Below are positions 46,617-64,000 of a DNA stretch of 64,000 nucleotides, in pieces. The DNA comes from Proteobacteria bacterium UBA4457. GTDB taxonomy: Bacteria; Pseudomonadota; Gammaproteobacteria; Ga0077536. The DNA lies in NCBI GenBank assembly GCA_002390205.1, contig DGOV01000083.1, positions 1,788-65,787 of the forward strand, read 5' to 3'. Positions within the stretch are counted from its first letter, which is position 1. The number at the start of each line of letters is the position of its first letter. The notes under the pieces are model-generated. The model was not told the DNA's origin. It worked only from the letters and a program-made list of their open reading frames with translations, and did not search any database. The translations under genes and the position numbers were made by a program.

Positions 46617-47693
46617 ATGAGTCTTCCAACATCACTTTCTCGGATTATAGAGCAAATACTAACCGCCCAAGCTAATAAAAAACCTTTGCGTATCGTAGGT
46701 GGAGACACGAAAAAATTCCTTCGCAAAGGGGCTGTTTCCGAGACCCTGTCGACGCTGGAACACTCTGGCATTATATCTTATCAACCCTCTGAATTAGTGA
46801 TTACCGCGAAATCAGGAACAAAGCTATCTGATATTGAATTGGAATTAGACAAGAGCGATCAGATGCTTGCTTTTGAACCTCCTAGATTAGGTTCGCTGAC
46901 TACGATTGGAGGGGTCGTATCCTCTGGATTTTCTGGCCCATCCATGCCTTATCGTGGGAGCGTCAGAGATTATGTTTTAGGAGTGAAACTCATTACTAGC
47001 AAAGGTGCTGCACTTCGTTTTGGAGGCGAAGTAATTAAAAACGTAGCGGGCTACGATATTTCAAGATTAGTGAGTGGGGCATTCGGGAGTTTGGGAGTGA
47101 TAAGTGAGGTGTCATTGCGTGTCATACCGAAAACCACTTCAGAACTAGGTCTTGAATGGACTAGTCTATCTTATTCTGAAGCGTGGTCGATGATGTTAGC
47201 CTTGGCTAAAAAGCCCTGGCCTATTACGGGTATGGCGTGGGCTGAAGATGTTCTGAGAGTTAGAGTGTCGGGCAGTCTTGAGGCGGTAAATGACGCGAAG
47301 AGACGTCTTTCCCCAAGTGAAGTTACAACTGATTTACAATATTGGAAAAACCTGCGCGATTATTCCTTACCAGCAATGCGTCCGAGAGAAAATCTTTCAC
47401 TTTGGCGAATCGCACTAGCTCGTGGAATTGATGGACCAGATGAAAAAATAGCATGGTCTGATTGGGGTGGGTCTCAGCGTTGGGTTTGGACGGAGGTCAG
47501 CGGGGGCGATGCTATGCGTGACTTCTGCGTTGAGAATGGCGGACATGCAACATGCTTTTATAGAGGGCAGAACGAATCCTCCTCAGTTTTTACGAGCCCT
47601 TTGCCTTTAGTCAAAAACTTAATGATAAGGCTGAAAAGTGGATTCGATGATCGACAAATATTCAACCCAAGAGAATATTTTGATTGGATGTGA
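46617..47693 (+). CDS. glcE: Glycolate oxidase FAD-binding subunit GlcE
   Basis: YQPSELVITA, MLAFEPP, FGGEVIKNVAGYDISRL, FNP near the C-terminus. Confidence 0.9.
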   Translation: MSLPTSLSRIIEQILTAQANKKPLRIVGGDTKKFLRKGAVSETLSTLEHSGIISYQPSELVITAKSGTKLSDIELELDKSDQMLAFEPPRLGSLTTIGGVVSSGFSGPSMPYRGSVRDYVLGVKLITSKGAALRFGGEVIKNVAGYDISRLVSGAFGSLGVISEVSLRVIPKTTSELGLEWTSLSYSEAWSMMLALAKKPWPITGMAWAEDVLRVRVSGSLEAVNDAKRRLSPSEVTTDLQYWKNLRDYSLPAMRPRENLSLWRIALARGIDGPDEKIAWSDWGGSQRWVWTEVSGGDAMRDFCVENGGHATCFYRGQNESSSVFTSPLPLVKNLMIRLKSGFDDRQIFNPREYFDWM

Positions 47694-47702
47694 GGAGAAG
47701 AT

Positions 47703-48920
47703 ATGCGTGCCCGATTAGCCGAATCTAACAGCTCAAAATCTTTCGCTCTTGCTGCGACAGAAATCATACGTTCATGTGTTCATTGTGGGATGTGTAACGC
47801 TTCCTGTCCGACGTATCAGTTGACGGGTGATGAACTGGAGGGCCCCCGTGGGCGTATTTATCTAATTAAAGGGATACTTGAGACTGGCGAGACGTCAGAT
47901 GTCGCTCGAACACATCTTGATCAATGCTTGGTTTGCAGGAGTTGTGAAGCCTCATGCCCCTCTGGCGTAAAGTATGGGGAGTTACTAGAGCTGACCAAGC
48001 CGCACATAGAGTCTTCCAATCGCAGTCCACTTCGATTAAGGATAAAACGGTATTTGATCGTTCAAATAGTTCCCAACAAGGTATTGTTTTCAATGTTTTT
48101 CGCGGTGGGACGGCTTTTAAAGCCGCTGCTCTCTTCTAATTTGAAGATACTTATTCCTGAGCGTGCATCTTTGCAAGCGTCGCGCAGAGTCGCACATAAA
48201 AGGAAAGCACTCTTGCTTTCGACGTGTGCACAATCAGTAGTGCGGCCGAGCATAGATACTGCGGCTATTAAAATTTTTGATCGTCTTGGGATTACCCTAA
48301 TTCCGGTTGCAGGGGCAGGTTGTTGTGGGGCATTAGCCTTACACTGTGGCTATGAAGAAAAGGCTATTGTTCAAGCGAAAGCAAACATTGATGCTTGGTG
48401 GCCTTATATCGAGCTAGGAGCTGAATCTATCATTGCCACGTCTTCAGGTTGTGGCCTGCAACTTAAAGGGTATGAAAGATTATTGAAAGAATTCCCAGAT
48501 TACAGCGCGAAATCGAAATATCTAGCGGGCTTGATTAAAGATCCTATAGAATTGATAGACGATCAAAAACTGTCGGCAGTTACTAAAGATTCAGATCGTT
48601 GCAGTATCGCTTTTCAGTCGCCTTGTTCTCAACAACACGGACTTAAGATTAATGGACGGGTTGAAGCTGTGCTCGAGAGGTTAGGTTGGAATTTCACTAA
48701 GGTGAAGGATCCGCACTTATGTTGCGGTTCAGCAGGGAGCTACTCAATTCTCTATCCAGAAACCTCGGCTAGATTAAGAGAAGAAAAACTCAATGCCTTA
48801 AGCCAAGGGAGCCCAGAGCTGATAGTCACTGCAAACATCGGATGCCAGCTTCATTTAGGGGCTAAGAGTGCAGTGCCAGTTATCCATTGGCTCGAGCTAA
48901 TTGAAAGAGAATTGAATTAA
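47703..48920 (+). CDS. glcF: Glycolate oxidase Fe-S subunit GlcF
   Basis: CVHCGMCNASCP, GPRGRI, CLVCRSCEASCP, two CCG domains, TANIGCQLHL. Confidence 0.92.
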   Translation: MRARLAESNSSKSFALAATEIIRSCVHCGMCNASCPTYQLTGDELEGPRGRIYLIKGILETGETSDVARTHLDQCLVCRSCEASCPSGVKYGELLELTKPHIESSNRSPLRLRIKRYLIVQIVPNKVLFSMFFAVGRLLKPLLSSNLKILIPERASLQASRRVAHKRKALLLSTCAQSVVRPSIDTAAIKIFDRLGITLIPVAGAGCCGALALHCGYEEKAIVQAKANIDAWWPYIELGAESIIATSSGCGLQLKGYERLLKEFPDYSAKSKYLAGLIKDPIELIDDQKLSAVTKDSDRCSIAFQSPCSQQHGLKINGRVEAVLERLGWNFTKVKDPHLCCGSAGSYSILYPETSARLREEKLNALSQGSPELIVTANIGCQLHLGAKSAVPVIHWLELIERELN

Positions 48921-48949
48921 TAAAGATTTTGCTGTTCGAGCTCTAATAA

Positions 48950-49705
48950 TCAGTATATTCTCAGTATTGCGGCATCACCTTCGCCATCGATGAAATCATC
49001 AAATCCATCACCAGGAGGATTACCATCATATAAAGAGTACTCTCTCTGCTGGCGCCAAGCTTCTCTTACGAAGGCATAAGGATCTAGCGCAGCTTGATCT
49101 CTTAATCGACTGGCTTCGAGCAGATTCGCACGTGAATTAATTGCACGCACAACTCCGGCCGGAACTGTTACTACTGCAGCTAAATAAGTTAAGGGATTGG
49201 TGAAAATACTCATTACCGGCGCAGAAACGTCTCTGTAGGAGCTTGGCCCCATAAAAGGAAGAGTCAGATAAGCTCCTTGGTCCGCGCCCCATTTTCCGAG
49301 TGTTTGTCCCAGATCTTCTTTGCGCAAAGGCATCCCTAGCGCAGTCGCTGGATCAAATAGTCCTCCGATTCCTAGAGTACTATTTACTATAAATCTTCCT
49401 GTATCTTTAAAGAAATCCTTAGGTTTTCCTTGCAATATATCGTTTGTGATCGTGTTCAGATAGCTTGCATTATCGAAGAAATTTGTCACACCTTTTCGTA
49501 CTACTGCGGGTGTCACAGCTACGTATTTTTCAGCGACAGGCTCTATAAATTTTTTGTCCAACGTATCATTGAAGGCGTAAATTTTTCTATTTATAGGCTC
49601 GTGAGGATCATTGTTAGATGTTTTCGATGTCGAGGCACAGCCGGTAAACAGTACGATGCACAAAGTACTTAATAGACATTTCAGCTGTATATGATTCTTT
49701 AACAT
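48950..49705 (-). CDS. mlaA: VacJ/MlaA family lipoprotein (hopanoid cluster-associated)
   Basis: Lipobox FTGC, DPHEPINRKIY, NSTLGIGGLFD, EDLGQTL, LPFMGPSSYRD, DPYAFVR. Confidence 0.92.
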   Translation of the reverse strand: MLKNHIQLKCLLSTLCIVLFTGCASTSKTSNNDPHEPINRKIYAFNDTLDKKFIEPVAEKYVAVTPAVVRKGVTNFFDNASYLNTITNDILQGKPKDFFKDTGRFIVNSTLGIGGLFDPATALGMPLRKEDLGQTLGKWGADQGAYLTLPFMGPSSYRDVSAPVMSIFTNPLTYLAAVVTVPAGVVRAINSRANLLEASRLRDQAALDPYAFVREAWRQQREYSLYDGNPPGDGFDDFIDGEGDAAILRIY

Positions 49706-49780
49706 TTAGTTTAGTCTCCCTTCGTGTCCTTGATTTCCCATATTACCTTAATCGCACGGGCGGGCACCATATTTTTCTTT

Positions 49781-50398
49781 CTAACCTAATTCTTTCAGGG
49801 CCTCGATCTTCGTTGTTAATTGCCGAAGGAGACTTTTAATGCCATCTTTTTCCATTATGTAAGAATATTCAGCTTTCTTAAGGGCTAGGTCTGAGACTCC
49901 TTCCGAAATCACATTTACGATAAGCCAGCCTTGTGAATTTTTTCTCAGGAGGTATTTCAGTGAGGTCCTGTCTCCGTTGTCCGATACCAGGGTAGTACTT
50001 AGGGAAAGGGAGTTGTTTCTTGATTTTCGTTCAACAATTACAAATTTCTGACCGGAGTAGTTTGAAAAGTGATGCGCGTAGGTTGATATGCTGAGCGATC
50101 GCATGACGCTCACGAACTCCTGTTGATCCTCATGGGACAGTACTCCCCATTTTTCCCCGAGGACTACTTTACTGATTAGTGGAAAGTTAAAACTTTCACT
50201 CACAACGTTTCTGATTATGTCTATTCGGCCGGCATGGCCCAAGCTCTTTTCAGATTTCATTGCTGTTAGAAGCACTTCGTGCAAATTGACGACTATTTCC
50301 TCGCCCCCGAGCGAGCGATCTCCTCCCCAACCAGGAGCACTAAATAGGCACAGAATAGAAAAAATTATGGTTGTTCGATAGAAATTGGCTTTACCCAT
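49781..50398 (-). CDS. hpnM: MlaC/Ttg2D-family periplasmic lipid carrier (HpnM-like)
   Basis: Signal peptide, VLGEKW, YAHHFSNYSG, W.IVNVISEGVSDLALKKAEY; in the hopanoid cluster. Confidence 0.82.
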   Translation of the reverse strand: MGKANFYRTTIIFSILCLFSAPGWGGDRSLGGEEIVVNLHEVLLTAMKSEKSLGHAGRIDIIRNVVSESFNFPLISKVVLGEKWGVLSHEDQQEFVSVMRSLSISTYAHHFSNYSGQKFVIVERKSRNNSLSLSTTLVSDNGDRTSLKYLLRKNSQGWLIVNVISEGVSDLALKKAEYSYIMEKDGIKSLLRQLTTKIEALKELG

Positions 50399-50422
50399 AT
50401 GGCATCCTGATTAGAATATTTA

Positions 50423-51538
50423 TTAATTCACTTTACGGTACGTTCTATTTTTCCAACGTGTCCGTTCACCACGCCAGTAGCGAATGGCGGAAGTCCACGT
50501 CATAGCTAAGAACAGCGAACTAGCAAACGGTAAAGAGAAAACCCAGAAAGATGAGCATCGGTAATGTCTTATAGTGGGCAAGTATGCGAGACACATCACT
50601 ATCAGACTTATTGCGGACAATAGTCGAACATAGCTATTATCGGATAGAATTCCAGCCAACGGCGTTAGAAAAGTGATCACCAAGAGTGCAGAGCAGAGTA
50701 GAAGCAAAGGTAGTGAATATTTTAGTTGTGTGAATGCAGTTCTCGCGACCATGTTCCATATGTTGGATAAAGTGCCATAAGGGCGAATAGCCTCAACATC
50801 GTGGCTGAGTCCGATCCACGTCCGGCCTCCTGCTTTTTTAATCAGTTTTGCAAGTGTGCAATCATCAATGATCGCATCGTGTAGTGCTGTAAAACCTCCT
50901 ATATCGTCCAACTTTGATGCCTTTATTAGAATGCAGCCGCCAGCTGCACCCGCAATCTTGGAGTTTGGATCATTACTTAATGCAAAAGGATAGATAAGTT
51001 TGAAAAAAAAGATAAAAGCGGGAAGCAAAAGTTTTTCCCATAGGTTCGCTATGGGTAACATAGCCATTATGGAGACAAGGTCTAAGTTCTTTTTTTGTTG
51101 AAGCCGGAAGAGGTCTGTTAGAGCTTGGGGAGCGAGCCTTATATCAGCATCCAGCAAAAGCAAATAAGGTGTTGAGATCTTCTTCCTACCCTGCTCTAAG
51201 GCCCAGAGCTTTCCTGTCCAGCCTGGAGGGGGAGGTTGACCTTCTACCAAACTAAGATTTTTTATATTGAGGTTTGTAACGGCGCTCGCTGTCTCATCCG
51301 TACTTTGATCATCTATCACAACGATCCCGCCCAGAGAGCCTTGCGACGCTAAAGCCAAAATAGTTTCTACTATGCATTCTGCCTCATCTCTTGCAGGTAT
51401 CAACGCAGTAATATGGGCGAGGGAAGGAGTACTTTTATCAACTCTTTCTAATTTCTCGCTCGTAGACCATGGGCGCCAAGGCAAGCACAATAGCGTTAGC
51501 CAAAGTATTACCGAAATTGAGGAAAGAGCTATTAGCAT
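50423..51538 (-). CDS. hpnB: Hopene-associated GT2 glycosyltransferase HpnB
   Basis: IPARDEA, DDQSTD, PPGWTGKLWAL, LDAD, AGAAGGCIL, IIDDCTLA, WNMVARTAFTQL. Confidence 0.85.
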   Translation of the reverse strand: MLIALSSISVILWLTLLCLPWRPWSTSEKLERVDKSTPSLAHITALIPARDEAECIVETILALASQGSLGGIVVIDDQSTDETASAVTNLNIKNLSLVEGQPPPPGWTGKLWALEQGRKKISTPYLLLLDADIRLAPQALTDLFRLQQKKNLDLVSIMAMLPIANLWEKLLLPAFIFFFKLIYPFALSNDPNSKIAGAAGGCILIKASKLDDIGGFTALHDAIIDDCTLAKLIKKAGGRTWIGLSHDVEAIRPYGTLSNIWNMVARTAFTQLKYSLPLLLLCSALLVITFLTPLAGILSDNSYVRLLSAISLIVMCLAYLPTIRHYRCSSFWVFSLPFASSLFLAMTWTSAIRYWRGERTRWKNRTYRKVN

Positions 51539-51589
51539 AGGAGTCTATACCTCCGGGTGTCGCGGCGGCGTCTAGAACGGAAGCTTTTG

Positions 51590-52726
51590 TTAAGCGACTT
51601 CTCTTTTTTCCGTACCAGCTTTTTCTATAGTATTTCCCATTGGGATAATAGTCTGAGACTCAGCTTCAGGCTCTTCTTCATAGTAGAATGGCACCTCTGG
51701 TGCAAGATCTCCTTGAGTCTTTGGACCAGCTAAAAATACTTTCAGTGCCTTAAGCGGGTTGTTAAACGTATCGTCAACCGCAGTCGCTTCATATCCGCAA
51801 TGAACCATGCAGTCAGCGCACTTTGGATTAACGCCAGTCCCGTATTTATCCCACTCGGTATCGTTTAACAACTCATCGAATGTGGACGCGTAGCCTTCTC
51901 CTACGAGCAGGTAACACGGTTTCTGCCACCCAAAAACATTCCGAGTGGGGTTCCCCCAAGGGGTACAGTGATAGGTCTGGTTTCCGGCCAAAAAATCTAA
52001 ATATAAGGTAGATTGATTAAAGCGCCATTTTTTGCCCTTGCCCGCTTTAAATATATCTCTAAACAGATTTTTACTCGCTGATTTTTTAAGAAAGACGTCT
52101 TGCTTTGGGGCTCTTTCATAGGAATAGCCGGGAGATATGGTGACGCCTTCTACGCCAAGAGCCATCATTTCGTCCATAAAGTCACTTACTTCATCTGGTG
52201 TTTCACCTTGGAACAACGTGCAGTTCACAGTGACGCGAAAGCCTCGTTGAAGTGCTTTTTGAATGACGCTTACGCACTTATCATATACGCCTTTTCGGCA
52301 TACAGACGCATCATGTCGTTCTCGACCTCCGTCCAAATGTATAGAAAATGTAAGGTATTTTGACGGCTCATACGAATCCATGTGCTTATCAAGAAGAATG
52401 GCGTTAGTACACAAATAAACAAATTTCTTTCGATCGAGATATCCTTGCACTATCTGCCGCATTTCTTTGTGTATGAGAGGTTCTCCACCTGCAATAGAGA
52501 CCATTGGTGCTCCGCACTCATCGATGGCTTCCATACATTTTTCATAGCTCAGGCGCTTGTTAAGTATGTCAGACGGATAGTCTATTTTTCCACAACCAGA
52601 ACAAGCTAGATTACAACGGAATAATGGCTCTAGCATTAAGACGAGTGGATACCTCTTAACGCGTTTCAGTTTTTGGCTGAGAATATATCGACCTACTCGA
52701 TATTGCTGGATTAGTGGGACACCCAT
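51590..52726 (-). CDS. hpnH: Radical SAM adenosylhopane synthase HpnH
   Basis: YPLVLMLEPLFRCNLACSGCGKI (CX3CX2C), CTPWGNPT, WQKPCYL, KCADCMVHCGYE. Confidence 0.95.
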   Translation of the reverse strand: MGVPLIQQYRVGRYILSQKLKRVKRYPLVLMLEPLFRCNLACSGCGKIDYPSDILNKRLSYEKCMEAIDECGAPMVSIAGGEPLIHKEMRQIVQGYLDRKKFVYLCTNAILLDKHMDSYEPSKYLTFSIHLDGGRERHDASVCRKGVYDKCVSVIQKALQRGFRVTVNCTLFQGETPDEVSDFMDEMMALGVEGVTISPGYSYERAPKQDVFLKKSASKNLFRDIFKAGKGKKWRFNQSTLYLDFLAGNQTYHCTPWGNPTRNVFGWQKPCYLLVGEGYASTFDELLNDTEWDKYGTGVNPKCADCMVHCGYEATAVDDTFNNPLKALKVFLAGPKTQGDLAPEVPFYYEEEPEAESQTIIPMGNTIEKAGTEKREVA

Positions 52727-52958
52727 GCGATTTTCCTAGTTTTGAGGAGAAATTGTATATGATTATTATATATTTACGACGTATTTTATATATATTACTA
52801 ACAGTACTGTAATAGAGCGTGAAAGTACAGCTTTGTTGCAGGGGAAAAGTGTTAAAATACTTTCAGAGAGAAAGAAGGTTAGCTTGCAACCAAGCGGTCT
52901 GCTCTCCATAATTCACACCCTAGGGTAATTGCTGGCAAATTGTGAGAAAAATAAGAAT

Positions 52959-54815
52959 ATGACGAATGGAAAGAAATACTCGCTACTCGACGAAATAGAT
53001 AGTCCAAAGAGTATGAGAAAGTTATCGGAGGATCAGTTAAGTGATTTGGCCTCCGAAGTTAGAGAGTTCCTTTTGAATAGTGTTAGCCAGGTCGGTGGTC
53101 ATTTTGCTTCAGGTTTAGGAACTGTAGAACTTACCATCGCACTTCATTATTTGTTTAACACGCCAGAAGATCGGATAGTCTGGGATGTAGGGCATCAAGC
53201 TTATCCGCACAAAATTTTGACAGGGCGAAAAGATCGACTGCACACCATCCGGCAGCACGAAGGGCTTGCACCGTTTCCGAAGAGAGATGAGAGCCCATAC
53301 GATACTTTTGGAGTTGGTCACTCTAGCACTTCTATAAGTGCTGCCCTAGGGATGGCTATAGCTGCAGAGCATGACGGCTCCGGTCGGCGTGCGGTAGCTG
53401 TTATCGGGGATGGAGCGATGACGGCCGGAGTAGCTTTTGAGGCAATGAATCATGCCGGAGATCTTGGTACTGATTTACTTGTTGTTTTGAACGACAACAA
53501 CATGTCTATTTCTCCAAATGTGGGAGCACTTTCTAACAGGTTTGCGCAAATACTATCTGGAAAACTTTATACCAGTGTGCGAGAAGGAAGTAAGAAAATG
53601 TTGGCTCAGATGCCGTCCGTCTGGGAATTGGCTAGGCGGGCTGAGGAGCATGTCAAAGGTTTGATTGTCCCTGGAACGCTATTTGAAGAGTTTGGTTTTA
53701 ATTATATCGGCCCTATAGATGGACATGATTTGCCCACTTTACTCTCTACTCTGAAAAATATTAAAAATCTTTCAGGGCCTCAATTGCTGCATGTAATAAC
53801 AAAGAAAGGTAAAGGTTATGCTCCTGCGGAGTCTGATCCGATTAAATATCATGGTGTTTCCCCCTTCGATCCAGAGGTCGGGATAAAGAAATCTACTGTT
53901 AAAAAAGCTCCAAACTATAGCGATGTCTTTGGCGATTGGATCTGTGATATGGCAGATCAGGATAGGAGACTAGTAGCTATTACTCCTGCGATGAGAGAAG
54001 GCTCAGGTCTCGTCCGTTTTGAAAAAGAATTTCCAAAGAGATACTTCGATGTAGCGATAGCAGAACAGCACAGTATAAATGTAGCCGCAGGTATGGCCTG
54101 TGATGGTGTTAAACCCGTAGTGGCCATTTACTCAACCTTTTTGCAGAGAGGTTACGACCAAGTAGTGCATGACGTTTGTAATCAGAACCTTCCTGTTCTT
54201 TTTGCCCTAGACCGTGCCGGATTAGTTGGTGCAGATGGACCAACACATAATGGGTGTTATGACTTATCTATTTTGCGGTGCTTGCCAAATATGACGATTA
54301 TGGCGCCGTCTGATGAGAATGAGTGCAGACAAATGTTGTACACGGGGTTTATGATGGATAGTCCAGTGGCTGTTCGCTATCCCCGAGGAACTGGTCCTGG
54401 CGCAGAAGTAGAGCAACAGATGACAGCAATACCCCTAGGAAAAGCCAGCTTAAAGCGGAAAGGGGCTAAAGTTGCTTTGTTAAGTTTTGGCACGACGTTA
54501 CAGATCGCGTTGAACGTGGGCGAACGTTTAGACGCTACAGTCGTTAACATGCGTTATGTTAAGCCGCTCGATATGGATATGATCATAGAAATGGCTGGTT
54601 CTCATGACATCCTCGTAACAATAGAAGAAAATATGGTTGCTGGTGGCGCCGGTAGTGCCGTTAATGAAGTTTTAGCCTTACATGGTAGGCACTTGAAGAT
54701 TTTAAACTATGGGTTACCAGACAGGCTTATTGAGCATGGATCACGAGATGACATGCTCTTGGATGCGGGCTTGACCGAGGAAGGTTTTGAGGCATTTGTA
54801 AAAGCGAGGTTGTGA
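52959..54815 (+). CDS. dxs: 1-deoxy-D-xylulose-5-phosphate synthase
   Basis: [46 protein letters not shown]. Start moved to the ATG at 52959. Confidence 0.98.
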
Positions 54816-54829
54816 AATTACTGAGGAGA

Positions 54830-55903
54830 CTATCTTAGAGTTTTAGTTAAAGCTTCTAAGAGTCTGCTCATATCGTTTTCAGAGATTGCACCCATCAGAG
54901 ATAATCTGAAAACCTTGGTTGAAAAGTGTCCTTGGCCTGCGTAGATAATGAAGCCAAGCGACTTGAGTTCATCGTGTAAATGTTGATATACCTTGCCTAC
55001 TGGCAGTTGGAACGTGTTGAGAACGCACGAAGATTCAGATAGTTCTATTAACGGTTTTATCCCGAAAGAGAGCAACTTTTTCTGCACCTTTGACATTCGG
55101 TTAGAAAACAACTTATGCCGAGCTTGCCAGCCCCCTTGCTCTAAAAACTCGTTCATCGCCTCATCAAAGGCGTAGAAGCATTGCACCGATTGCGTGAAAG
55201 GCGTTTCACCTAGATCTTGCTTAACAAGGTACTGGGCTAGGTCCAGGTAAACTGATTTTGCAGGGTGGGTTGTTTGAAAAAGTACTCGTCGGGCAACAAC
55301 GAAAGCTGTTCCTGGAACACCATGTAGGCACTTGTTCGCTGTCGCGGCACAGGCATCAAGTTCCCACTTTTCGAAGTCTATACTTTCCCCCCCAAAACTA
55401 CTTACACCATCCATCAATACGCGTACTCCGTGCTTGCGGCACACTTCGGAAATCGCTGAAATATCATTCAGACGTCCAGTGGTAGTTTCGTGATGGACTA
55501 TCGCTACATGTGAGTATCGAGATCCATCAAGCGCTTTATCTAGCTTTTCCAGTGAGATTACTTGATCCCATCCTGTACTTAGCTTTTCATGATCTATGTT
55601 ATGCGCGACTGCAATTTTGGTCATGCGTTCACCATAAACGCCATTTTCTAGGATCAGGATCTTTCCACCCGGAGGAATGCAGCTTACAAGCATGGCTTCT
55701 ACGGCCGCGGTTCCTGACCCAGTCAATAAAACACTTGCCCAAGTTTTATTATCGAGCGCATATGTCGCAAGAATCTTTTGCCTAATGTTTCCCTGCAAGT
55801 TAGAGAATTCGATTTCCCTGTGACAAAGATCTTGGCCTTGCAGAGCGTCTCGCACTCGTTGGCTAAGTGTTACTGGTCCAGGGTTTAAAAGAATCTGTTT
55901 CAC
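54830..55903 (-). CDS. aepZ: 2-aminoethylphosphonate aminotransferase (AepZ/PhnW family, PLP)
   Basis: LLNPGP, GSGTAAVE, NGVYGERM, HHETTTG, DGVSSFGG, ANKCLHGVPG, PFT. Likely GTG start at 55903. Confidence 0.92.
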   Translation of the reverse strand: MKQILLNPGPVTLSQRVRDALQGQDLCHREIEFSNLQGNIRQKILATYALDNKTWASVLLTGSGTAAVEAMLVSCIPPGGKILILENGVYGERMTKIAVAHNIDHEKLSTGWDQVISLEKLDKALDGSRYSHVAIVHHETTTGRLNDISAISEVCRKHGVRVLMDGVSSFGGESIDFEKWELDACAATANKCLHGVPGTAFVVARRVLFQTTHPAKSVYLDLAQYLVKQDLGETPFTQSVQCFYAFDEAMNEFLEQGGWQARHKLFSNRMSKVQKKLLSFGIKPLIELSESSCVLNTFQLPVGKVYQHLHDELKSLGFIIYAGQGHFSTKVFRLSLMGAISENDMSRLLEALTKTLR

Positions 55904-55940
55904 TATGCCTCTTGTCCTTATTAACTGGTGAGTTATTGTT

Positions 55941-57080
55941 CTATCCAATATGGCTTTTGAGACGGACTAAAACATCTGATGGAGCTATTGTAGGCCGAGG
56001 TAGATCTTTTGGCACCCCAGTTTGGATTTTCATATGCATGAACCGAGCGCCGCTATGGCTGGGCTCAGCTAGGAAGTCGTGTAAAACTTCTAATTTATTG
56101 CTGCGCCAGACATTAGAGTAACCACAGGCAACAGCTATTCCATCAAACTGGGTATCTTTAGAAACAGTCGCTTGGCCACCAGTAGAGTCATGCGCTTCGT
56201 TGTCTAGTAACAAATGAGAAAAGTTAGGTGGATTGTATGCCCCTGCGGTTGCAAGATTACCCAGTCGCATTAGGGCGGCCCCATCACCGTCTATGACTAG
56301 TACTTTTAAATCAGGCCGACTAAGCGCTAATCCTAGACCAAGCGAGGAAGCGCACCCCATAGATCCGACCATATAGAAATAATTAGGGAGATCGGCGATA
56401 GAGTAAAGCTCGCGGCCGGTATATCCGGTAGTGGCTATGACGACGGTATTCGTTTGTTGAGTGGTCTTTACTACCGATTGTAAAACTTGGTTTCTCGTTA
56501 GTGCAGTAACGTCAATATTTTCATCACTCTGGTAAAAAGTATTTTGTTTCTTGTTTGGGAGTTGATTTTTTAGATTAAAGTTCGCCACCGATCCTTTTTG
56601 CATAATCAAAGAGTAGGATTCACGTTTTTCTTCTATGCTTTGCGAGATGTTGGCTAGGGTTGAATTAATTTCCTGAGTTGCTCGGGGGAAACTCTCATAG
56701 CCTATGCCAATACAATCGAATAACTCTTTTGTGATATTGCCCATCAGTTCATGTTGTGGTTCGTCCTTTAGGCCAGGTTCACCTCGATGAGTGCAGATTA
56801 CCAAGACGGGGATCTTAAAAGTATGTATGAGAGAAGTGAGCGGGCTAATAGCATTACCGAGCCCTGAGTTTTGCATTAGGGCAACACTTTTTTTTCCACC
56901 TATAGAAGCACCTGCTGCTATAGCTATTGCATCGCCTTCATTCGCGGCTGAAACATAATTGAGCGAACTTGCGCTGATTACATAGTTTATTAGTGGGGTT
57001 AAAAAAGAGCATGGCACTCCTGCGTACCAATCATACCCTTGATTTTTTAGCGGCAATATAAACTCTTCTGCTCGTATCAC
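55941..57080 (-). CDS. aepY: Phosphonopyruvate decarboxylase
   Basis: GVPCSFL, NEGDAIA, MQNSGLGN, RGEPG..DEPQH, VGSMG, DGDGAALMR, HDSTGGQ. Confidence 0.95.
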   Translation of the reverse strand: MIRAEEFILPLKNQGYDWYAGVPCSFLTPLINYVISASSLNYVSAANEGDAIAIAAGASIGGKKSVALMQNSGLGNAISPLTSLIHTFKIPVLVICTHRGEPGLKDEPQHELMGNITKELFDCIGIGYESFPRATQEINSTLANISQSIEEKRESYSLIMQKGSVANFNLKNQLPNKKQNTFYQSDENIDVTALTRNQVLQSVVKTTQQTNTVVIATTGYTGRELYSIADLPNYFYMVGSMGCASSLGLGLALSRPDLKVLVIDGDGAALMRLGNLATAGAYNPPNFSHLLLDNEAHDSTGGQATVSKDTQFDGIAVACGYSNVWRSNKLEVLHDFLAEPSHSGARFMHMKIQTGVPKDLPRPTIAPSDVLVRLKSHIG

Positions 57081-57091
57081 GTATTAGGGCC

Positions 57092-58738
57092 TTATTTTGC
57101 GTGGTTTGCGGCAAATTCGCTAGCACGCTCGAGGTCATGCAAGGAATTCACATTTATCCAGTGACCATGAATGTATATCACACGAATGGGACGACCATTT
57201 AATACAAGCTTGTTTAACAAATCTTTCATATCAAACGAAGGAAATTTATTGTTTTCTGACAGCTGATCTAAAGCTTCTTCTATCCATTTCCTGCCTTCTC
57301 CATGGACTCGCATCATGCCGATCCAGCGTCCATCGGAGCTTGAATTCTCTGTATAAGACTGATCACTGATCTGCTGGAGAAGAATGTCTTGGCCCCATAA
57401 AGACCGGTCATCTGGTCCGCTACAATAGGCATAATCTGGAGTCTCATTTGTAGATGATTCCAGCATTTGGGAGTCTACAATGACAGTTATTTCACGATCA
57501 GACTCTACAAGACTTCTGAGTACATACCCTCGGAACAAGACATCACCATACATAAGCACCATATCATCGGAGAAACTCTTTTTTGCGCATAATAGAGATG
57601 TCAACTCTCCAGTTGTCGCGTGCAAATCATTGACAATCAGTTCTATTTTTTTAGAAGGGATAGTTTCATGTTTGTAGCCACCCACTACAGCAAGATTGTC
57701 TACCCCATGTTTCTTGAATTGATCTATAAGTCTGCCGAGTAAAGGCTTGCCGTTAACGGGTAACATTACTTTTGGTCGGTCTGCAGTCAGATTTTCCAAA
57801 CCAGAACCTTGTGCGGCAGCGAGTAGGATGGCTTTTAAGTCTCTTTTTGTGCCTAAGAAATACTGTTTTTCTGCTGCTTGCAACTCGTCAGCCCCTTGCA
57901 AGCGAAAAATTTCTTTTACAGTCGCGATGTTGTCTTCTACCTCAACTAAATTTTCTTTCAACTGAATTTTTCTTGCAGTATCTTGCATTGCGGTTACTGA
58001 GCTTCTAATTAAATGGTTGGCCCAAATCACAAGATTTATCTTCGCGTCTCGAAAGACTTTCGTGGGGGTGCTGTAGTACTTTGTAGGGACTATTACAAGC
58101 GGAGCTCTGCCGGCCCATTCGTGAGCAAATTCGATGATTTGATCTGCTTCAGAGTGAGCGCTATGAATTAATATTGCATCGGCTCCTGCCTTTCTATAGG
58201 CCTCAGCTCTTCGCAGTGCTTCTGCTGTATTCCAACCTGCAATATATGCCTCGACGCGGGCTACAATACAAAAATCATCGTCTGTTTGCGAATCTTTTCC
58301 TGCGGCAATTTTCCCACAAAATTCATCTATATTTGCTAGCTCTTGTCTCTCTCCTGAAATAAAGCTATTTGTCTTAGGGAATAATTTATCTTCTATGCAT
58401 ACACCAGATACTCCACGTTGTTCCAGCTTTCGAACTAGACGACGCATATTGTTGAAATTTCCATACCCGGTGTCGCCATCCAAAAGAATTGGGATATTGC
58501 AGGCGTCGACCATAAATTCGACCATATCGACCACCTGAGTCCAACTGGCTTCGTTGTTATCTCTAACGCCGTATTGAGCCGATAAGGCAAGGCCACTGGC
58601 CCATATTCCACGAAAGCCTGCTTCTTCTGCGATTCGTGCGCTTATTCCATTGTGTGCTTCTAAAATGAATTCGAGGTTGTCCGAGAGCAGGAGAGCTTTC
58701 AGCTTTGAGGTATTTGTTTTTTGTTGATTAAGTGACAT
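57092..58738 (-). CDS. aepX: Phosphoenolpyruvate mutase fused to a C-terminal nucleotidyltransferase domain
   Basis: PepM-diagnostic EDKX5NS motif ([10 protein letters not shown]), DGDTGYG, EAHNG. C-terminal [10 protein letters not shown] / RPKVML / YGD domain. Confidence 0.96.
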
Positions 58739-59471
58739 TTATTTTAGGCAATATTTCATGTGAAGCTCGCTCAATATCCTCGGGGTAATCTATTTCTATC
58801 CAAGGGAGTCCGGTTATGTCCTCCACTCCTATATTATAGTCTGTATTTATCGCAAGTTCTCGCAGCGCTTCTTCATGCGGTTGAGATTCCATACCAGCTT
58901 CAATAAATCCAGCGATAATTTCTTTCAGTCTTACCGCAGTACTTGCGCAAAATTTGAAGAAACCGACTGACTCTCCGATTCGGTCATATACCAGGCTAGG
59001 GTCTATTTTTTTTCTGAATTCCACAATTTTCTCATTCTCTATGCATATTTTTACGGGCTCATCTCCGTCTATGTAATGACGGTCAATTAAGAAGCAATCT
59101 TTAGAAGGGCTGTGGATTAGCCGAGATAATATCTCAGGATGATATAAGACATCAGCATCCATAACTAAAACATCACTGGTACTATCGCACAAAACATCTC
59201 GCATACTCCAAAGACTAACAATCGATCCCAAATTGTATAAAGGGTTGTGCTTATGAGATATATCCGTCAACCCTTTTTGCTGAAGCCTTTCGAGTACGGC
59301 GGGTGCCTCGTGTCCAAGGCAGAGATTGATGTCAGTTACTCCTAGTTTCCTAAGTACCCGAATGTGTCTTTCAAGAAGAGACGTACCGTCAAATTCTAGG
59401 AGGCACTTTGCAGTCGCATGCGCAGAGCTAATGCGATTCCCAACTCCTGCGGCCAGTATTATAGCCTTCAC
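58728..59471 (-). CDS. Phosphocholine/phosphonate cytidylyltransferase (LicC/PntC-like)
   Basis: [43 protein letters not shown]; overlaps aepX. Confidence 0.88.
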
Positions 59472-60220
59472 TGTGCCTTCTTAAGTAGGCGCGCCAGAGT
59501 GTTGCCAACGCCAAAATATGCGAATGCGTCTTTCAGCTGTCCGTAGAAATGTCCAAAGTTTGAAATACTCGTATCCGTAAGGTACTCAAGCGTCAATACG
59601 GTACGCTTATCTCGCGGTTTGGCGGGTGTAACTCGATGTCGAATATTATCGCCATTAAAAAAAACGAGAGAACCGGGTGAAATTTTCGTGCTATGCATTA
59701 CAGTTTCCTTACAATCGTCTTTGCTGAACAGCTCGTATTCGAGCGCACAGCAAGATTCGTCTACGATGCCTATCAGACAGGTATATCGAGAACCTCTATA
59801 GTATGATTTGTCGTAATGAAATCCAATGTGGTCCCCTTCTCGGGCGTAGGAATATAGAGCATAGGCATGAGGATCGTTCTCAGGGCAGTATATGAGTGAT
59901 TTGCCGACTACAGAACTTAAGAAGCTCCTGAGCGAAGCTGAAGTGTAGATAGAGCTGAATATTGGGGCATTCAGATCCAGATCAAATCTCGAGATGCTAC
60001 CACCTTTTTTGTGTTTAGGTATAAAACTCCTGTGAATATATGGTTCGAGTTGAGGTAGAATCTTTTGTATGGAGCAAAGAAGAGAGTCAGGTAAAAAATT
60101 GTCTATTTGCATAAACTCGTCGTTTGTTCGAAATTCAGTCTGTGAGCTGTTGGCTTTTATACTACTCAATTGATTTAAAGGGTCGATTTCGGCAGCCGAT
60201 TTGTAATTAGCGATACTCAT
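59468..60220 (-). CDS. 2OG-Fe(II) oxygenase (H-x-D...H facial triad)
   Basis: GDHIGFHYD, G.LVFFNG..IRHRVTP, KRTVL; first gene of the phosphonate operon. Confidence 0.82.
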   Translation of the reverse strand: MSIANYKSAAEIDPLNQLSSIKANSSQTEFRTNDEFMQIDNFLPDSLLCSIQKILPQLEPYIHRSFIPKHKKGGSISRFDLDLNAPIFSSIYTSASLRSFLSSVVGKSLIYCPENDPHAYALYSYAREGDHIGFHYDKSYYRGSRYTCLIGIVDESCCALEYELFSKDDCKETVMHSTKISPGSLVFFNGDNIRHRVTPAKPRDKRTVLTLEYLTDTSISNFGHFYGQLKDAFAYFGVGNTLARLLKKAQ

Positions 60221-60359
60221 GTGACGTTAAACAACCTTTTATCCAGCGGCACTCATCTGTGGAGAGGGCTTCTCCAGACAAAGAGGGCCTGTTTTTCATA
60301 GCGTAATTTGCTGAGCTTTCGCTGATTATGCCATAGTCGGACAATGCGCAACCACAGAA

Positions 60360-61382
60360 TTGGCTAATAAAATGTCAAAAATCATTAAGTTTCTATTTTT
60401 ATTATTAGGTATCGGGTTGCTGGTAACGGTTACTTACCAGACTGACTTGGCCCAATTAGCGCAGCACATTTCCGCTATTGGGTTCTTTGGGGTTGCTTTA
60501 ATTCTTATCGTTTATAGTCTTTACTTCGGGGCCGATGTTCTGAGTTGGCAAATCACTATGCCGAAAATTCCGCTGACAATCCTTTGGTTTGGTCGTCTCT
60601 ATGTAGTCCGGATGATCGGTGAAGCCTATAATAACCTTACGCCAACTGCCTCTTTAGGAGGAGAACCCATTAAGGCGTGGTTGTTGAAATCGAATTGGGC
60701 GATTCCCATTAGAGATTCGGCCTCCTCGTTAGTTATTGCGAAAACAGCAAGTATGTTCTCGTTATCTATTTTTGGTTGCGTGGGTGTCATCTTTCTTTTT
60801 CAAAGTTCTGCATTTGCTGGGGAGGAGAAAAATATTGCGCTAGGCGGATTGATTTTTATAATATTTTCCTCCATTGTTTTTTTTATGATGCAGTATTTTC
60901 GTTTTTCGTCATATGTAGTGGGTAAAATTTCAAGTAATCGATTTGCTGGATTATTACAAAAAGCTTTTAGTACAGTAGAAGATATAGACAAAAAGTTTGA
61001 TGTTTTCTATCGGGAACATGGTTTGCGTTTCGGTGTCGCTTGCTTGGCGGCTATGGCTAATTGGTTGATTGGCATTGTTGAGGTTTTTGTGGTTTTGCAT
61101 CTTATTGGCTATCCATTATCCCTGGCGGAGGTTTTTATTATAGAGAGCCTTGTCCAATTAGTCCGCACGATTACATTTTTCATACCGGCAGGGCTGGGCA
61201 CTCAAGAAGGAACATTTTTTATTGTCGTAGGTGCCCTTACTGGGGTGTCTTCTGCAGGTTTGGCAGTGGCTCTCATCAGACGGTTTAGAGAGTTGATTTG
61301 GTTGGCAGTAAGTTTTTTATTAGCGATATTTTACTCAGTCAGGCCGAGTACAATCTCAAAATTAGATCTTGAAGAGCTATAG
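60360..61382 (+). CDS. HpnL-like / lysylphosphatidylglycerol-synthase-TM flippase-like membrane protein
   Basis: IGEAYNNLTPTASLGGEPIKA, FFIPAGLGTQEG, IRRFRELIW; many TM segments. Confidence 0.8.
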   Translation: MANKMSKIIKFLFLLLGIGLLVTVTYQTDLAQLAQHISAIGFFGVALILIVYSLYFGADVLSWQITMPKIPLTILWFGRLYVVRMIGEAYNNLTPTASLGGEPIKAWLLKSNWAIPIRDSASSLVIAKTASMFSLSIFGCVGVIFLFQSSAFAGEEKNIALGGLIFIIFSSIVFFMMQYFRFSSYVVGKISSNRFAGLLQKAFSTVEDIDKKFDVFYREHGLRFGVACLAAMANWLIGIVEVFVVLHLIGYPLSLAEVFIIESLVQLVRTITFFIPAGLGTQEGTFFIVVGALTGVSSAGLAVALIRRFRELIWLAVSFLLAIFYSVRPSTISKLDLEEL

Positions 61383-61391
61383 TTCTTTCGT

Positions 61392-62384
61392 TCAACCTAT
61401 CATTTTCATTTTTCGGAACCACTCTAATGAGTCATGAATGGCTATTTTTGCAGGGCGCGCACTATAGCCAAGTTCCTTAGAGGCTCGTGCCGATGAAAAG
61501 AACATTTTATGTGCAGCCATCCTTAACCCATCAACTGTGGCTTGCGGTTCCGGACCATTAGTTAGGCCGGCCCAAATCTCGGAGGCAAATGCAATGGGGT
61601 AGACAACCGCTCTAGGGATTCTTAGTCGAGGGGGGGGATGGTTACAGTATGCTGCAACGATATCGAGGATCTCTTTTAGAGTTTGGTTTTCGCCACCAAG
61701 AATATACCTTCGTCCAATTTGGCCTTTATCGTAAGCCAGCAAATGCCCTTTTGCTACATCATCTACATGAGCGACATTAAGTCCCGTATCAATGTATGCA
61801 GGCATATGACGATTAGCGGCATCTCGTATGATTCTTCCTGTAGGAGTCGGTTTAGGATCACGCGGTCCGATCGGTGTAGATGGATTCACAATGACAGCAG
61901 GTAGATTTTCTTCCACTACAAGACGATCGACAACTTTTTCAGCTAAAAATTTTGAACGTTTGTAGTGACCAATCATGTCCTTAAGATTTGAGGGCGTATC
62001 TTCGCAAGATGAATTTTCATCATCCGTTAGGCCAATAGTTGCGACACTGCTGGTATAAATGATTTTACTAACTCCTGCTCGCATTGCGGCACGCATAATG
62101 TTTTCTGTTCCTGCTACGTTATTAGCATACAGTTCATCGTGATTTTTAACCCACAACCTATAGTCGGCTGCGACATGATAGAGAGTATCGCATCCTCGTA
62201 ACGCGCGTTCTAGCGAGCCACTATCTTGGAGATCTCCGTTCACAACTGGAACATCTAGATCAGAGATTGTTCGGGTATCACTCGAGATCCGCTTGAGTAT
62301 CTTTAAAGAGACCCCTTGACTTAAGAGAGCTCTCGCTACTGCATTTCCGAGGAAGCCGGTTGCACCAGTTACAAGAGTCGTCAT
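61392..62384 (-). CDS. hpnA: Hopanoid-associated sugar epimerase/dehydratase HpnA
   Basis: VTGATGFLG, HVAADYRLW, YKRSK, VNPSTPIGPRD.KPTPTG, YILGGEN. Start moved to the ATG at 62384. Confidence 0.92.
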   Translation of the reverse strand: MTTLVTGATGFLGNAVARALLSQGVSLKILKRISSDTRTISDLDVPVVNGDLQDSGSLERALRGCDTLYHVAADYRLWVKNHDELYANNVAGTENIMRAAMRAGVSKIIYTSSVATIGLTDDENSSCEDTPSNLKDMIGHYKRSKFLAEKVVDRLVVEENLPAVIVNPSTPIGPRDPKPTPTGRIIRDAANRHMPAYIDTGLNVAHVDDVAKGHLLAYDKGQIGRRYILGGENQTLKEILDIVAAYCNHPPPRLRIPRAVVYPIAFASEIWAGLTNGPEPQATVDGLRMAAHKMFFSSARASKELGYSARPAKIAIHDSLEWFRKMKMIG

Positions 62385-62980
62385 TTTCCTTCGACCATAA
62401 TTTTTCTGTACTGGAGAATGACAAATAGAGCAGCTATAGGAGCTCCTAGACTGGCTAGATATAAAAAGGAATTTAAGCCCTCTAGCAGGGTCACGATCGG
62501 AATTAAATACAGAATATCTTCTGCTTCGAAGCCACCCCAAAGAGGCTGGTGGATTCTCGACTTTCCATGCTTTTCTTCTATTAAGTAGCGTAGGTGAAAG
62601 ATAAGCGCTACTGACACTCCTGAAATTATGCCGGCTTCCAAGGCATAATTAGCTTCTGAGAAAAGGGCAACACCAACTCCTATTCCTACAAACATTGATA
62701 CGGTGACTAAAGCATCTGATGCTAGATCGAAAATATGTCCAAACCGACTTTGTTTATTTGCAAGTCTAGCTAACTCTCCGTCCATATGGTCAATAAAGTT
62801 AGATGAGATTATCAGTAATGCAGCTATATTAGGATAAGCTCCTTTAGCAAAGAGCCATGCGCCTGCAAGTCCTACAATCAGTCTTAGTAGAGTGAAGTGA
62901 TTAGGGTGGATTGTATTAGAGTCTTTAAAAGGGGTTATCATCCAAGCTGCGGCTTTCGCATCCCAAGGTTTATCTCGCAA
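62381..62980 (-). CDS. CDP-alcohol phosphatidyltransferase family protein
   Basis: HPNHFT and the signature DHMDGELAR-X8-G-X3-D-X3-D. TTG start with an AGGAG RBS; overlaps hpnN and hpnA. Confidence 0.9.
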   Translation of the reverse strand: MRDKPWDAKAAAWMITPFKDSNTIHPNHFTLLRLIVGLAGAWLFAKGAYPNIAALLIISSNFIDHMDGELARLANKQSRFGHIFDLASDALVTVSMFVGIGVGVALFSEANYALEAGIISGVSVALIFHLRYLIEEKHGKSRIHQPLWGGFEAEDILYLIPIVTLLEGLNSFLYLASLGAPIAALFVILQYRKIMVEGK

Positions 62981-64000
62981 TTTCGGCGCTCCTTTTTACA
63001 TATCTGCGAAGTAGTAGTGGAAGACATCCTAGCGTACTAATCAAAGTTACTGAAAGGCCTAAGCTGAGCAAAAGACCCATACTTCCTGTGCCCGCATGAG
63101 GTGATATAGCCAAGTTCCCAAAGCTAGCCATGGTAGTTAGAGTGCTTAGAATAACTCCTCTTGCGGTACTGGTTCGCATGAAATTCATCGATAATCCATC
63201 GTGGTTAATATGGCGATGAATAATATGAAGCGTGCTATCAACACCAATGCCCACGATCAACGGGAGAGCAATGATGTTGGCAAAATTAAATGGCAAACCG
63301 ATTAAAACCATAATTGAAGTTGTTGCCACACATGCTAAGAGCATAGGTATAAGAGCGATTACTACGTGAGACGTTCTCTTCAAAGATACCCACAGCACTC
63401 CAATGATAACGAGACAGGCCGTCGCAAATGCTTGAGCGAACGAGGTGAGTACTGAACGACTTGCTTCAAGGCTGACAATAGGGGTGCCAGTAGCGCTATG
63501 GCCAGTAACTTTCCTTACCTCCGATATAAAGCCAGAGATTTTATCATTCGAATCTAATGATTCCTCAGGATTAATTTGTAGTCGGATAAGTCCTTCTTCC
63601 GATACCCATCGACTTTTAAGAGTGACAGGTAAATTCTCAAGGGTAACCATATTTGGAGATAGCCCATCATTTATTTTTTTTATCAGTGGAGAGAAATGGC
63701 GCATAGTCAGAGCATCTAAATTTCTTGCATATGTGACGTTTTGGTTGTGATCGGCAGTACTCAGTTGATTTAATATGTTTTGCAGCTGAGATTTGTAAAG
63801 GAGTGATGCTTTTGAAGGTTCGAACTGTTTGTCAATCGTTTCAATATTGCGAATTAAATTAATTTTGAGAGCTTTAAGATCAAGACTTGGTGCGTCTATG
63901 TCTTTGGTAAGTTGAAATTCCCCTCCGATCACCAGCCCTAGCTCATCGATGACAGCTAGTTTTGAAGCTTGCTTTTGCGGGATGAAAGATGAGATGAAAG
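62970..64000 (-). CDS. hpnN: HpnN-type MMPL/RND hopanoid transporter, C-terminal part (5' end beyond the window)
   Basis: Frame is open to the window edge (SSFIPQKQASKLAVI). ATGTPI, PFNFANIIALPLIVGIGVD, TTMASFGNL, HAGTGSMG. Confidence 0.88.
   Translation of the reverse strand, partial: FISSFIPQKQASKLAVIDELGLVIGGEFQLTKDIDAPSLDLKALKINLIRNIETIDKQFEPSKASLLYKSQLQNILNQLSTADHNQNVTYARNLDALTMRHFSPLIKKINDGLSPNMVTLENLPVTLKSRWVSEEGLIRLQINPEESLDSNDKISGFISEVRKVTGHSATGTPIVSLEASRSVLTSFAQAFATACLVIIGVLWVSLKRTSHVVIALIPMLLACVATTSIMVLIGLPFNFANIIALPLIVGIGVDSTLHIIHRHINHDGLSMNFMRTSTARGVILSTLTTMASFGNLAISPHAGTGSMGLLLSLGLSVTLISTLGCLPLLLRRYVKRSAEIAR

Follow-up and report, generated by a model that had tools for sequence, protein, structure and literature searches.

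A gammaproteobacterial hopanoid gene cluster enclosing an aminoethylphosphonate lipid module: a candidate phosphono-hopanoid locus

Phosphonolipid gene clusters of the "Burkholderiales_CDP-OH" families share a core consisting of a phosphoenolpyruvate (PEP) mutase fused to a nucleotidyltransferase (Ppm-PntC), a phosphonopyruvate decarboxylase (Ppd), a 2-aminoethylphosphonate (AEP) aminotransferase (AEPT), an alpha-ketoglutarate/Fe oxygenase, a second PntC, a cytidine diphosphate (CDP)-alcohol phosphotransferase (CDP-OH) and an LPG_synthase_TM protein labelled "hpnL" (PMC8942020). These families correspond to what Yu et al. 2013 termed "Group 1 phosphonolipids" (Li & Horsman 2022, PMC8942020). 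Group 1 covers 318 of the 882 ppm neighbourhoods in RefSeq, where it is the commonest type, and the lipid that it makes has yet to be characterised (PMC8942020); the same cluster, "hpnL" included, has been drawn for a lichen Nostoc and for Burkholderia (Fig. 7 in PMC5987646). Terpenoid genes have been mentioned in connection with such loci, namely for Nitrosococcus, where family GCF 731 is called a 'possible phosphonoterpene' (PMC8942020), for N. oceani, with an antiSMASH "phosphonate-terpene" call (PMC7285500), and for Acetobacteraceae, where a PEP mutase-terpenoid linkage was referred to as "An undiscovered terpene-phosphonate" (PMC8776678), in each case as a one-sentence remark without comparative or statistical backing. 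Here we analyse a 64,000-nt stretch of contig DGOV01000083.1 (hereafter the window) from UBA4457, a gammaproteobacterial metagenome-assembled genome (MAG; 87.7% complete, 144 contigs), in which the Group 1 genes are interleaved with genes for hopanoid biosynthesis and export. The reading that we favour, tentatively, is that of a hopanoid biosynthesis/export cluster that absorbed the Group 1/CDP-OH phosphonolipid pathway and whose acceptor is an extended hopanoid.

Genes were called from the listing of open reading frames (ORFs) together with hidden Markov model (HMM) scans against curated cut-offs, which gave the following features from left to right.

48950..49705, minus strand: MlaA/VacJ-like lipoprotein, final gene of the hpnH-hpnB-hpnM-mlaA operon (NF011672, 125.6 bits, under the cut-off of 375); it adjoins hpnM in relatives too
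49781..50398, minus strand: HpnM, MlaC-like periplasmic lipid-binding protein (TIGR03481, 176.3 bits, cut-off 160.1)
50423..51538, minus strand: HpnB-like glycosyltransferase, a marginal match (TIGR03469, 378.3 bits against a cut-off of 379.25)
51590..52726, minus strand: HpnH, adenosylhopane synthase, a radical S-adenosylmethionine enzyme (TIGR03470, 553.6 bits, cut-off 225.05)
52929..54815, plus strand: Dxs (Pfam DXP_synthase_N, 410 bits)
54830..55948, minus strand: AepZ/PhnW-type AEP aminotransferase (TIGR03301, 386 bits, cut-off 360.8)
55941..57080, minus strand: phosphonopyruvate decarboxylase Ppd (TIGR03297, 424.8 bits, cut-off 312.5)
57092..58738, minus strand: PEP mutase (PepM) with a C-terminal PntC-like nucleotidyltransferase (NT) domain (TIGR02320, 390.4 bits, cut-off 319.55; PF13714 and PF12804)
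58728..59471, minus strand: NT2, stand-alone PntC-like cytidylyltransferase (PF12804; best PDB match Tde-PntC 6pd1)
59468..60220, minus strand: Fe(II)/2-oxoglutarate (2OG) oxygenase that has the HalD/BesD fold and an HxD triad and is predicted to hydroxylate a phosphonate (PF23169, 42.8 bits)
60360..61382, plus strand: HpnL-like flippase-type membrane protein, LPG_synthase_TM (PF03706, 103 bits; TIGR03476, 147.4 bits, under the cut-off of 195.65)
61392..62384, minus strand: HpnA, 'hopanoid-associated sugar epimerase' of short-chain dehydrogenase/reductase (SDR) type (TIGR03466, 463.9 bits over residues 53-380 of the uncorrected ORF, cut-off 367.65)
62381..62980, minus strand: CDP-alcohol phosphotransferase (hereafter the transferase), between hpnN and hpnA and translationally coupled (PF01066; motif DHMDGELARLANKQSRFGHIFDLASD)
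62970..64000, minus strand: 3' part of hpnN, resistance-nodulation-division (RND) hopanoid transporter, continuing past the window (full length 877 aa; TIGR03480, 792.5 bits, cut-off 751.85)

The AEP genes, the transferase and the hpn genes had all been placed here by a preliminary description made from the sequence, and each gene that it named was confirmed in the ORF listing and the HMM scans. Its assignments were sound for the AEP enzymes and for HpnH, HpnN, HpnA and HpnM, all of which exceed the curated cut-offs, and were stated too firmly for the HpnL-like, HpnB and MlaA proteins, which score below theirs. On the minus strand (54830-60220) the AEP operon is transcribed in the order 2OG oxygenase, NT2, PEP mutase-NT, Ppd, AepZ, with junctions of -4, -11, +11 and -8 nt. 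Past the right edge, the remaining 4.7 kb of the contig hold the rest of hpnN, an HpnG-like gene (161.4 bits against a cut-off of 187.1), a squalene-synthase-like gene (sqs; 110 bits against 286.75, TIGR01559) and a DEAD-box helicase, after which the contig ends; like HpnB, the HpnG and squalene synthase homologs thus stay under their cut-offs. Among the genes that the description proposed to look for beyond this edge, hpnG was recovered as a below-threshold homolog, and the squalene-hopene cyclase gene shc and hpnCDE were not found up to the contig end. The junctions of +2, -10, -11 and -4 nt along sqs-hpnG-hpnN-CDPOH-hpnA make this string a single translationally coupled operon, in which the transferase gene shares 11 nt with hpnN and 4 nt with hpnA; the transferase gene accordingly belongs to the hopanoid core operon and stands apart from the AEP operon. 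The 382-aa ORF previously taken for hpnA (61392-62540) is over-extended, its family match beginning only at residue 53, and we replaced its start by M53, whose ATG (62384-62382) overlaps the TGA of the transferase gene (ATGA) and is preceded by the Shine-Dalgarno-like sequence GAAGGA. The HpnL-like gene is single-copy in the assembly.

Comparison with the Group 1 core showed that all seven genes are found in UBA4457, with 40-63% identity to the Cupriavidus, Paraburkholderia and Nostoc genes, the flippase-like protein excepted, which is just 25-28% identical to the Burkholderiales Group 1 copy. The transferase is 47-52% identical to the module genes of these three genera, and, in the Nostoc and Cupriavidus modules, the oxygenase orthologs are 40-52% and the NT2 orthologs 43-48% identical. 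The PEP mutase carries the catalytic EDKxxxxxNS motif and, at residues 303-417, the PF12804 (NTP_transf_3) domain. NT2 matches the characterised AEP cytidylyltransferase Tde-PntC (6pd1) with an E value of 6.6e-10 over its full length, followed by LicC (1jyk), and we infer that NT2 and the PepM-fused NT domain form cytidine monophosphate (CMP)-activated (hydroxy)AEP. In the 2OG enzyme H135-Y-D137 aligns to the HWG of HalD and H195 is the distal ligand; because of this HxD triad it is a predicted hydroxylase, and we rejected a halogenase reading since BesD/HalD halogenases have HxG/A at the iron site. The hydroxylase call agrees with 1-hydroxy-AEP as the product chemistry predicted for the Group 1 cluster type (PMC8942020). 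The HpnL-like protein fails the TIGR03476 cut-off, whereas the proteins of the Cupriavidus module and of two loci from other gammaproteobacterial families (L034 and L116) reach 338-351 bits, the Cupriavidus flippase, at 342 bits, being a bona fide HpnL. The transferase, 199 aa long, has the complete D(x)2DG(x)2AR(x)8G(x)3D(x)3D signature at residues 64-89 (DHMDGELARLANKQSRFGHIFDLASD), and its homolog search gave close orthologs only, with at least 51% identity. Its nearest solved structures (IPCT/DIPPS 4mnd, AF2299 4o6m and CHPT1 9uet) all score below 25 bits, too weak for inference of donor or acceptor. Taken together, these genes very probably serve to produce (hydroxy)AEP in CMP-activated form as the head group of a membrane lipid.

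The distribution of the transferase was examined in a phylogenetic profile of 400 genomes drawn evenly across the class (~240 families), with transferase homologs defined at E<=1e-15 and association assessed by Fisher test. The shc gene occurs in 26 of the 28 transferase-positive genomes compared with 40 of the 372 transferase-negative ones (p = 1e-20), and hpnH is present in both of the transferase-positive, shc-negative exceptions, the UBA4457 MAG and another that is 62% complete. A true PepM accompanies the transferase in 27/28 genomes. Since genomes with PepM and without the transferase have shc only at the background rate (2/14, p = 0.70), it is the transferase, rather than phosphonate synthesis per se, that is nearly confined to hopanoid producers. 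Outside this sample, shc was found over its cut-off in all of 20 further genomes with a fused-PepM cluster (Nostoc, Calothrix, Chroococcales, five Cupriavidus, Burkholderia, two Paraburkholderia, Pararobbsia, Pandoraea, Streptomyces, Planctomycetota and gammaproteobacterial MAGs), and in 14/20 loci PepM has the transferase next to it. Among Cyanobacteria the transferase was present in just the seed Nostoc genome of 151, too few for a replicate co-occurrence test. HpnL homologs (E<=1e-25) were detected in 45 genomes of the class sample; shc is present in 43 of these, and the remaining two are the incomplete MAGs named above; because 19 of the 45 are without PepM, HpnL is hopanoid-linked irrespective of phosphonate, and we conclude that it is a hopanoid-linked protein recruited by the phosphonate module. 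We also considered hpnH as a discriminator between C35 and C30 hopanoids and rejected it for want of discriminating power, 43/46 module genomes having it as well as 34/40 shc-positive genomes without the transferase; being frequent in both groups, it cannot separate a hopanoid from a glycerolipid acceptor.

An alignment search with the PepM-NT fusion yielded 80 loci from species-representative genomes, and the window proteins were mapped onto these and onto 20 loci of relatives. The order sqs-hpnG-hpnN-CDPOH-hpnA / hpnL-like / 2OG-NT2-pepM_NT-ppd-aepZ / dxs / hpnH-hpnB-hpnM-mlaA is kept in every UBA4457 family member examined, with occasional single-gene losses from this 16-gene layout. In other gammaproteobacterial families (L034, L100, L116, L126, L127, L128 and L129) the corresponding string includes shc itself, flanked by sqs and hpnG, and reads sqs-shc-hpnG-(PhnY*-like hydroxylase)-hpnN-CDPOH-hpnA-HpnL-2OG-NT2-pepM-ppd-aepZ, and overall the interleaving is conserved across the 9 gammaproteobacterial families examined (f1, f11, f15, f16, f83, f99, f174, f204 and f210). 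In Pandoraea nosoerga and Pararobbsia alpina the module is followed by dxs, hpnN and hpnH, with shc 3-4 kb beyond on the same contig, and 5 loci of Nostocales have hpnH and hpnA no further than 10 kb from the module, a sixth having hpnA only. The interleaving asserted in the preliminary description is thus borne out by the coupled junctions and by a layout kept across relatives, and its caveat of an aep block placed elsewhere, at unrelated loci, in close relatives did not materialise, the layout being family-wide and recurring in other families and phyla. We conclude that the interleaving of AEP and hopanoid genes is ancient and recurrent.

Several variants of the module were seen in these relatives. 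Three other gammaproteobacterial families have a PhnY*-like (PhyH-type) 2OG hydroxylase between hpnG and hpnN (L034:14403-15164, minus strand; L116:3892-4653, plus strand; L129:4646-5572, plus strand), scoring ~200 bits to the methylphosphonate hydroxylase model NF052437, below its cut-off; it apparently stands in for the HalD-like oxygenase in L034 and L116. The transferase family is found directly beside a bona fide HpnL in seven genomes (G015:C57:5941-7499, G016:C61:104983-106719, G142 C1, G184 C1363, G247 C63, G350 C202 and G423 C25); in five of them this copy is a second, distant paralog (30-34% identical to that of UBA4457), often far from PepM, and in G184 and G350 it is an ortholog (49-51% identical). 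Two CDP-OH transferases are encoded in each of the clusters L127, L092 and L086, a possible sign of two acceptors or of two head groups; the UBA4457 genome has the tier-1 copy only. One large-genome family member (L028/L046, on G016:C9) has a cluster without the transferase, the 2OG oxygenase, the hpnL-like gene and hpnN, keeping NT2-pepM-ppd-aepZ between hpnA and dxs, with a tier-2 transferase and HpnL pair elsewhere (C61). A 1149-aa ORF at L122:10795-14244 was considered as a Rosetta-stone fusion of the transferase and rejected as a high-G+C artefact in which only the C-terminal PF01066 domain is present; in this high-G+C relative ORFs of ~1150 aa run over the transferase gene on both strands, just the C-terminal 170 aa are real, and automated calls need caution.

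As for the surroundings in UBA4457, Dxs, the housekeeping entry enzyme of the methylerythritol phosphate (MEP) pathway, has its gene between the AEP and hpnH operons, and this dxs is the sole copy detected in the assembly (a single tblastn match). The glycolate oxidase subunit genes glcE-glcF (window 46617-48920) adjoin mlaA on its left in the clusters of most relatives as well and have no evident tie to the lipid genes. A promoter and terminator scan of 48500-64000 gave fewer matches than shuffled sequence and was uninformative.

Next to this distribution stands the observation that shc was not found in the UBA4457 assembly, either with the TIGR01507 profile or by tblastn with the Shc of a congener. 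The preliminary description had held that a genome without the cyclase would speak against its proposal, and this is formally what the assembly gives; yet 5 of 6 congeners have shc, among them G001, whose cluster proteins are 92-98% identical to those of UBA4457. In G001 shc (L121, G001:C17:36001-53000) lies between an acyl-CoA dehydrogenase and an NYN-domain gene, outside the hopanoid cluster, and the genes that flank it (acyl-CoA dehydrogenase, NYN protein, MtnA and FMN dehydrogenase) have no orthologs anywhere in the UBA4457 assembly. Because the entire flanking block is missing, the absence of shc says little; most likely it is an assembly gap, and true loss in UBA4457 is unlikely. A 91%-complete congener and a 97%-complete family member are likewise without an shc match. 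In the UBA4457 family, shc has left the hopanoid cluster.

Enzymes of the PepM, Ppd and AepZ families make AEP by established chemistry, and these three would form AEP here. The HxD oxygenase would then hydroxylate AEP, probably to 1-hydroxy-AEP, and the PntC-like enzymes, free and PepM-fused, are expected from their similarity to Tde-PntC to yield CMP-(hydroxy)AEP, from which the transferase, with six transmembrane segments (6-TM), would move the phosphonyl head group onto a membrane alcohol. The most likely acceptor would be a side-chain hydroxyl of an extended hopanoid, bacteriohopanetetrol (BHT) or one of its derivatives formed through HpnH, HpnG and HpnA, and one may speculate that the SDR protein HpnA generates the side-chain alcohol. 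The predicted product is a zwitterionic phosphono-hopanoid, which the HpnL-like protein may flip and which HpnN, HpnM and the MlaA-like protein may carry to the outer membrane; the calculated [M+H]+ is 654.4857 for BHT-AEP and 670.4806 for BHT-hydroxyAEP. We favour an extended hopanoid as acceptor because diacylglycerol (DAG), being universal, leaves the restricted distribution unexplained and because the transferase gene lies in the hopanoid core operon beside hpnA. Extended to the cluster family as a whole, the proposal is that Group 1 clusters make no glycerophosphonolipids and instead cap bacteriohopanepolyols with (hydroxy)AEP, using HpnL as flippase and HpnN/HpnM as exporters, a generalisation to which we give slightly less than even weight.

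The strongest competitor is an ordinary phosphonolipid, in which (hydroxy)AEP is placed on DAG or another non-hopanoid lipid and the tie to hopanoids is purely functional: such a lipid would depend on outer membranes ordered by hopanoids or be exported through HpnN/HpnM/HpnL, and the genes would co-evolve and co-localise for that reason. We consider it a serious, if doubtful, alternative, and much of what speaks for it also weighs against the phosphono-hopanoid. Co-occurrence with shc could mirror such a functional or transport dependence and not one shared molecule, and most Cupriavidus, Paraburkholderia and Nostoc modules stand alone, away from hpn genes; in UBA4457 itself there is the missing shc discussed above. 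We found no description of a phosphorus-containing hopanoid or of a Group 1 product in the literature searched; the hopanoids of Burkholderia, Nostoc and nitrifiers are frequently analysed, although the usual derivatising methods could miss a phosphorus lipid. We know of no CDP-alcohol phosphotransferase with a triterpenoid acceptor, and, as far as is known, the characterised enzymes, the PDB neighbours of the UBA4457 protein included, all use glycerolipid, ceramide or polyol partners. Published predictions draw DAG as the acceptor (PMC5987646), and published models of the core have a DAG-type lipid as product (PMC5987646, PMC8942020). On the other hand, if the acceptor were DAG, which is universal, one would not expect the transferase in hopanoid-gene genomes only (28/28 when hpnH is counted, against a 16% background), nor its gene inside the hopanoid core operon and outside the AEP operon, nor HpnL restricted to hopanoid producers even where phosphonate genes are missing, and this very common family of clusters has likewise yielded no characterised phosphonolipid (PMC8942020). 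The hopanoid acceptor put forward in the preliminary description therefore gains from the near-confinement of the transferase to hopanoid producers and stays an inference, the data not telling hopanoid and DAG apart.

It is improbable that the head group goes to an envelope component other than a lipid, for instance a glycan, the lipopolysaccharide core or a protein, with the hopanoid neighbourhood a general 'envelope island'. Known bacterial AEP tailoring is mostly on glycans (PMC6697681), and the cluster does contain an HpnB-like glycosyltransferase and the HpnA 'sugar epimerase'; however, glycans are phosphonylated by LicD-type transferases and not by 6-TM CDP-OH enzymes (PMC6697681), the ORF listing and HMM scans show no polysaccharide export or polymerase genes in the cluster, and the co-occurrence with shc would go unexplained. 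Slightly more improbable still is a reversed chemistry of PssA/PgsA type, in which CDP-diacylglycerol (CDP-DAG) is the donor and the hydroxyl of 1-hydroxy-AEP the acceptor, giving phosphatidyl-hydroxy-AEP. The best NCBIfam matches of the transferase are indeed users of CDP-DAG or CDP-archaeol (AIP synthase, 53 bits; PgsA, 40 bits) and a hydroxylase is part of the conserved core, but this scheme leaves two conserved PntC-like cytidylyltransferases without a role unless the phosphonate is CMP-activated (PMC6697681), and it, too, does not account for the restriction to hopanoid producers. Fortuitous adjacency of two unrelated pathways, for which one could cite the housekeeping genes dxs, glcEF and mutS/htpG close by, is effectively refuted by interleaving in 9 gammaproteobacterial families, by the recurrence of the linkage in Burkholderiales and Nostocales and by the co-occurrence value of p = 1e-20.

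If the acceptor is a hopanoid, the product of the most abundant predicted family of phosphonolipid clusters, open since 2013 (PMC8942020), would be explained, HpnL and perhaps HpnA, still function-less in a 2025 survey (PMC12583986), would gain roles, and the question whether hopanoids ever bear phosphorus would be answered by an undescribed class of hopanoids containing a carbon-phosphorus (C-P) bond. A hopanoid capped in this way would resist phosphatases, which is relevant to phosphorus-limited oceans, hopanoid biomarkers and the phosphonate pool, and would provide both a new biomarker and a source of marine and soil phosphonate. The phosphono-hopanoid hypothesis is directly testable in culturable carriers; the UBA4457 window itself adds just one example to a cluster type already in print, and the MAG is incomplete.

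Compared with the contiguous Group 1 core, the UBA4457 set is split, the transferase being in the hpnN-hpnA operon and the flippase-like gene being divergent, and the set as a whole lies enclosed by sqs-hpnG-hpnN and dxs-hpnH-hpnB-hpnM. Hopanoid head groups are tailored by HpnI, HpnK and HpnJ, which lead to BHT-glucosamine and the cyclitol ether, and by HpnO, which leads to aminotriol. These routes resemble the UBA4457 cluster in that polar groups put on the C35 side chain are specified within hpn clusters, and they differ from it in that neither phosphorus nor CMP activation is involved. The tailoring clusters also keep HpnL, HpnA and HpnB, to which no role has been assigned (PMC12583986). 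The Kennedy-type CDP-ethanolamine/CMP-AEP:diacylglycerol phosphotransferases (CEPT/CHPT1; 9uet) share with the UBA4457 transferase the catalytic motif and the logic of transferring a CMP-activated head group to a lipid hydroxyl; the similarity to CHPT1, however, amounts to 19.6 bits, and the eukaryotic enzymes, at ~400 aa, are about twice as long as the 199-aa UBA4457 protein. For a bacterial membrane lipid that bears hydroxylated AEP there is a precedent in Bacteriovorax (Bdellovibrio) stolpii, which makes a 1-hydroxy-2-aminoethylphosphonate sphingophosphonolipid (Watanabe et al. 2001, cited in PMC8942020), although the anchor there is ceramide and the gene cluster falls in the distant family GCF 761. 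The functions of hpnA, hpnB, hpnL and hpnM are listed as unknown in the 2025 survey (PMC12583986). By their published description, the Nitrosococcus and Acetobacteraceae clusters are like that of UBA4457 in having AEP genes beside squalene synthase, cyclase and other hopanoid genes, and the UBA4457 family differs from them in the relocation of shc outside the cluster. The novelty implied by the preliminary description was consequently overstated, the core having been published (PMC8942020, PMC5987646) and a terpene-phosphonate speculated upon (PMC8942020, PMC7285500, PMC8776678). We conclude that the UBA4457 cluster is a further case of a known, uncharacterised Group 1 family whose hopanoid link had previously been speculated in print, and that what is new here is the operon-level anatomy, the breadth of the conserved interleaving and the co-occurrence statistics.

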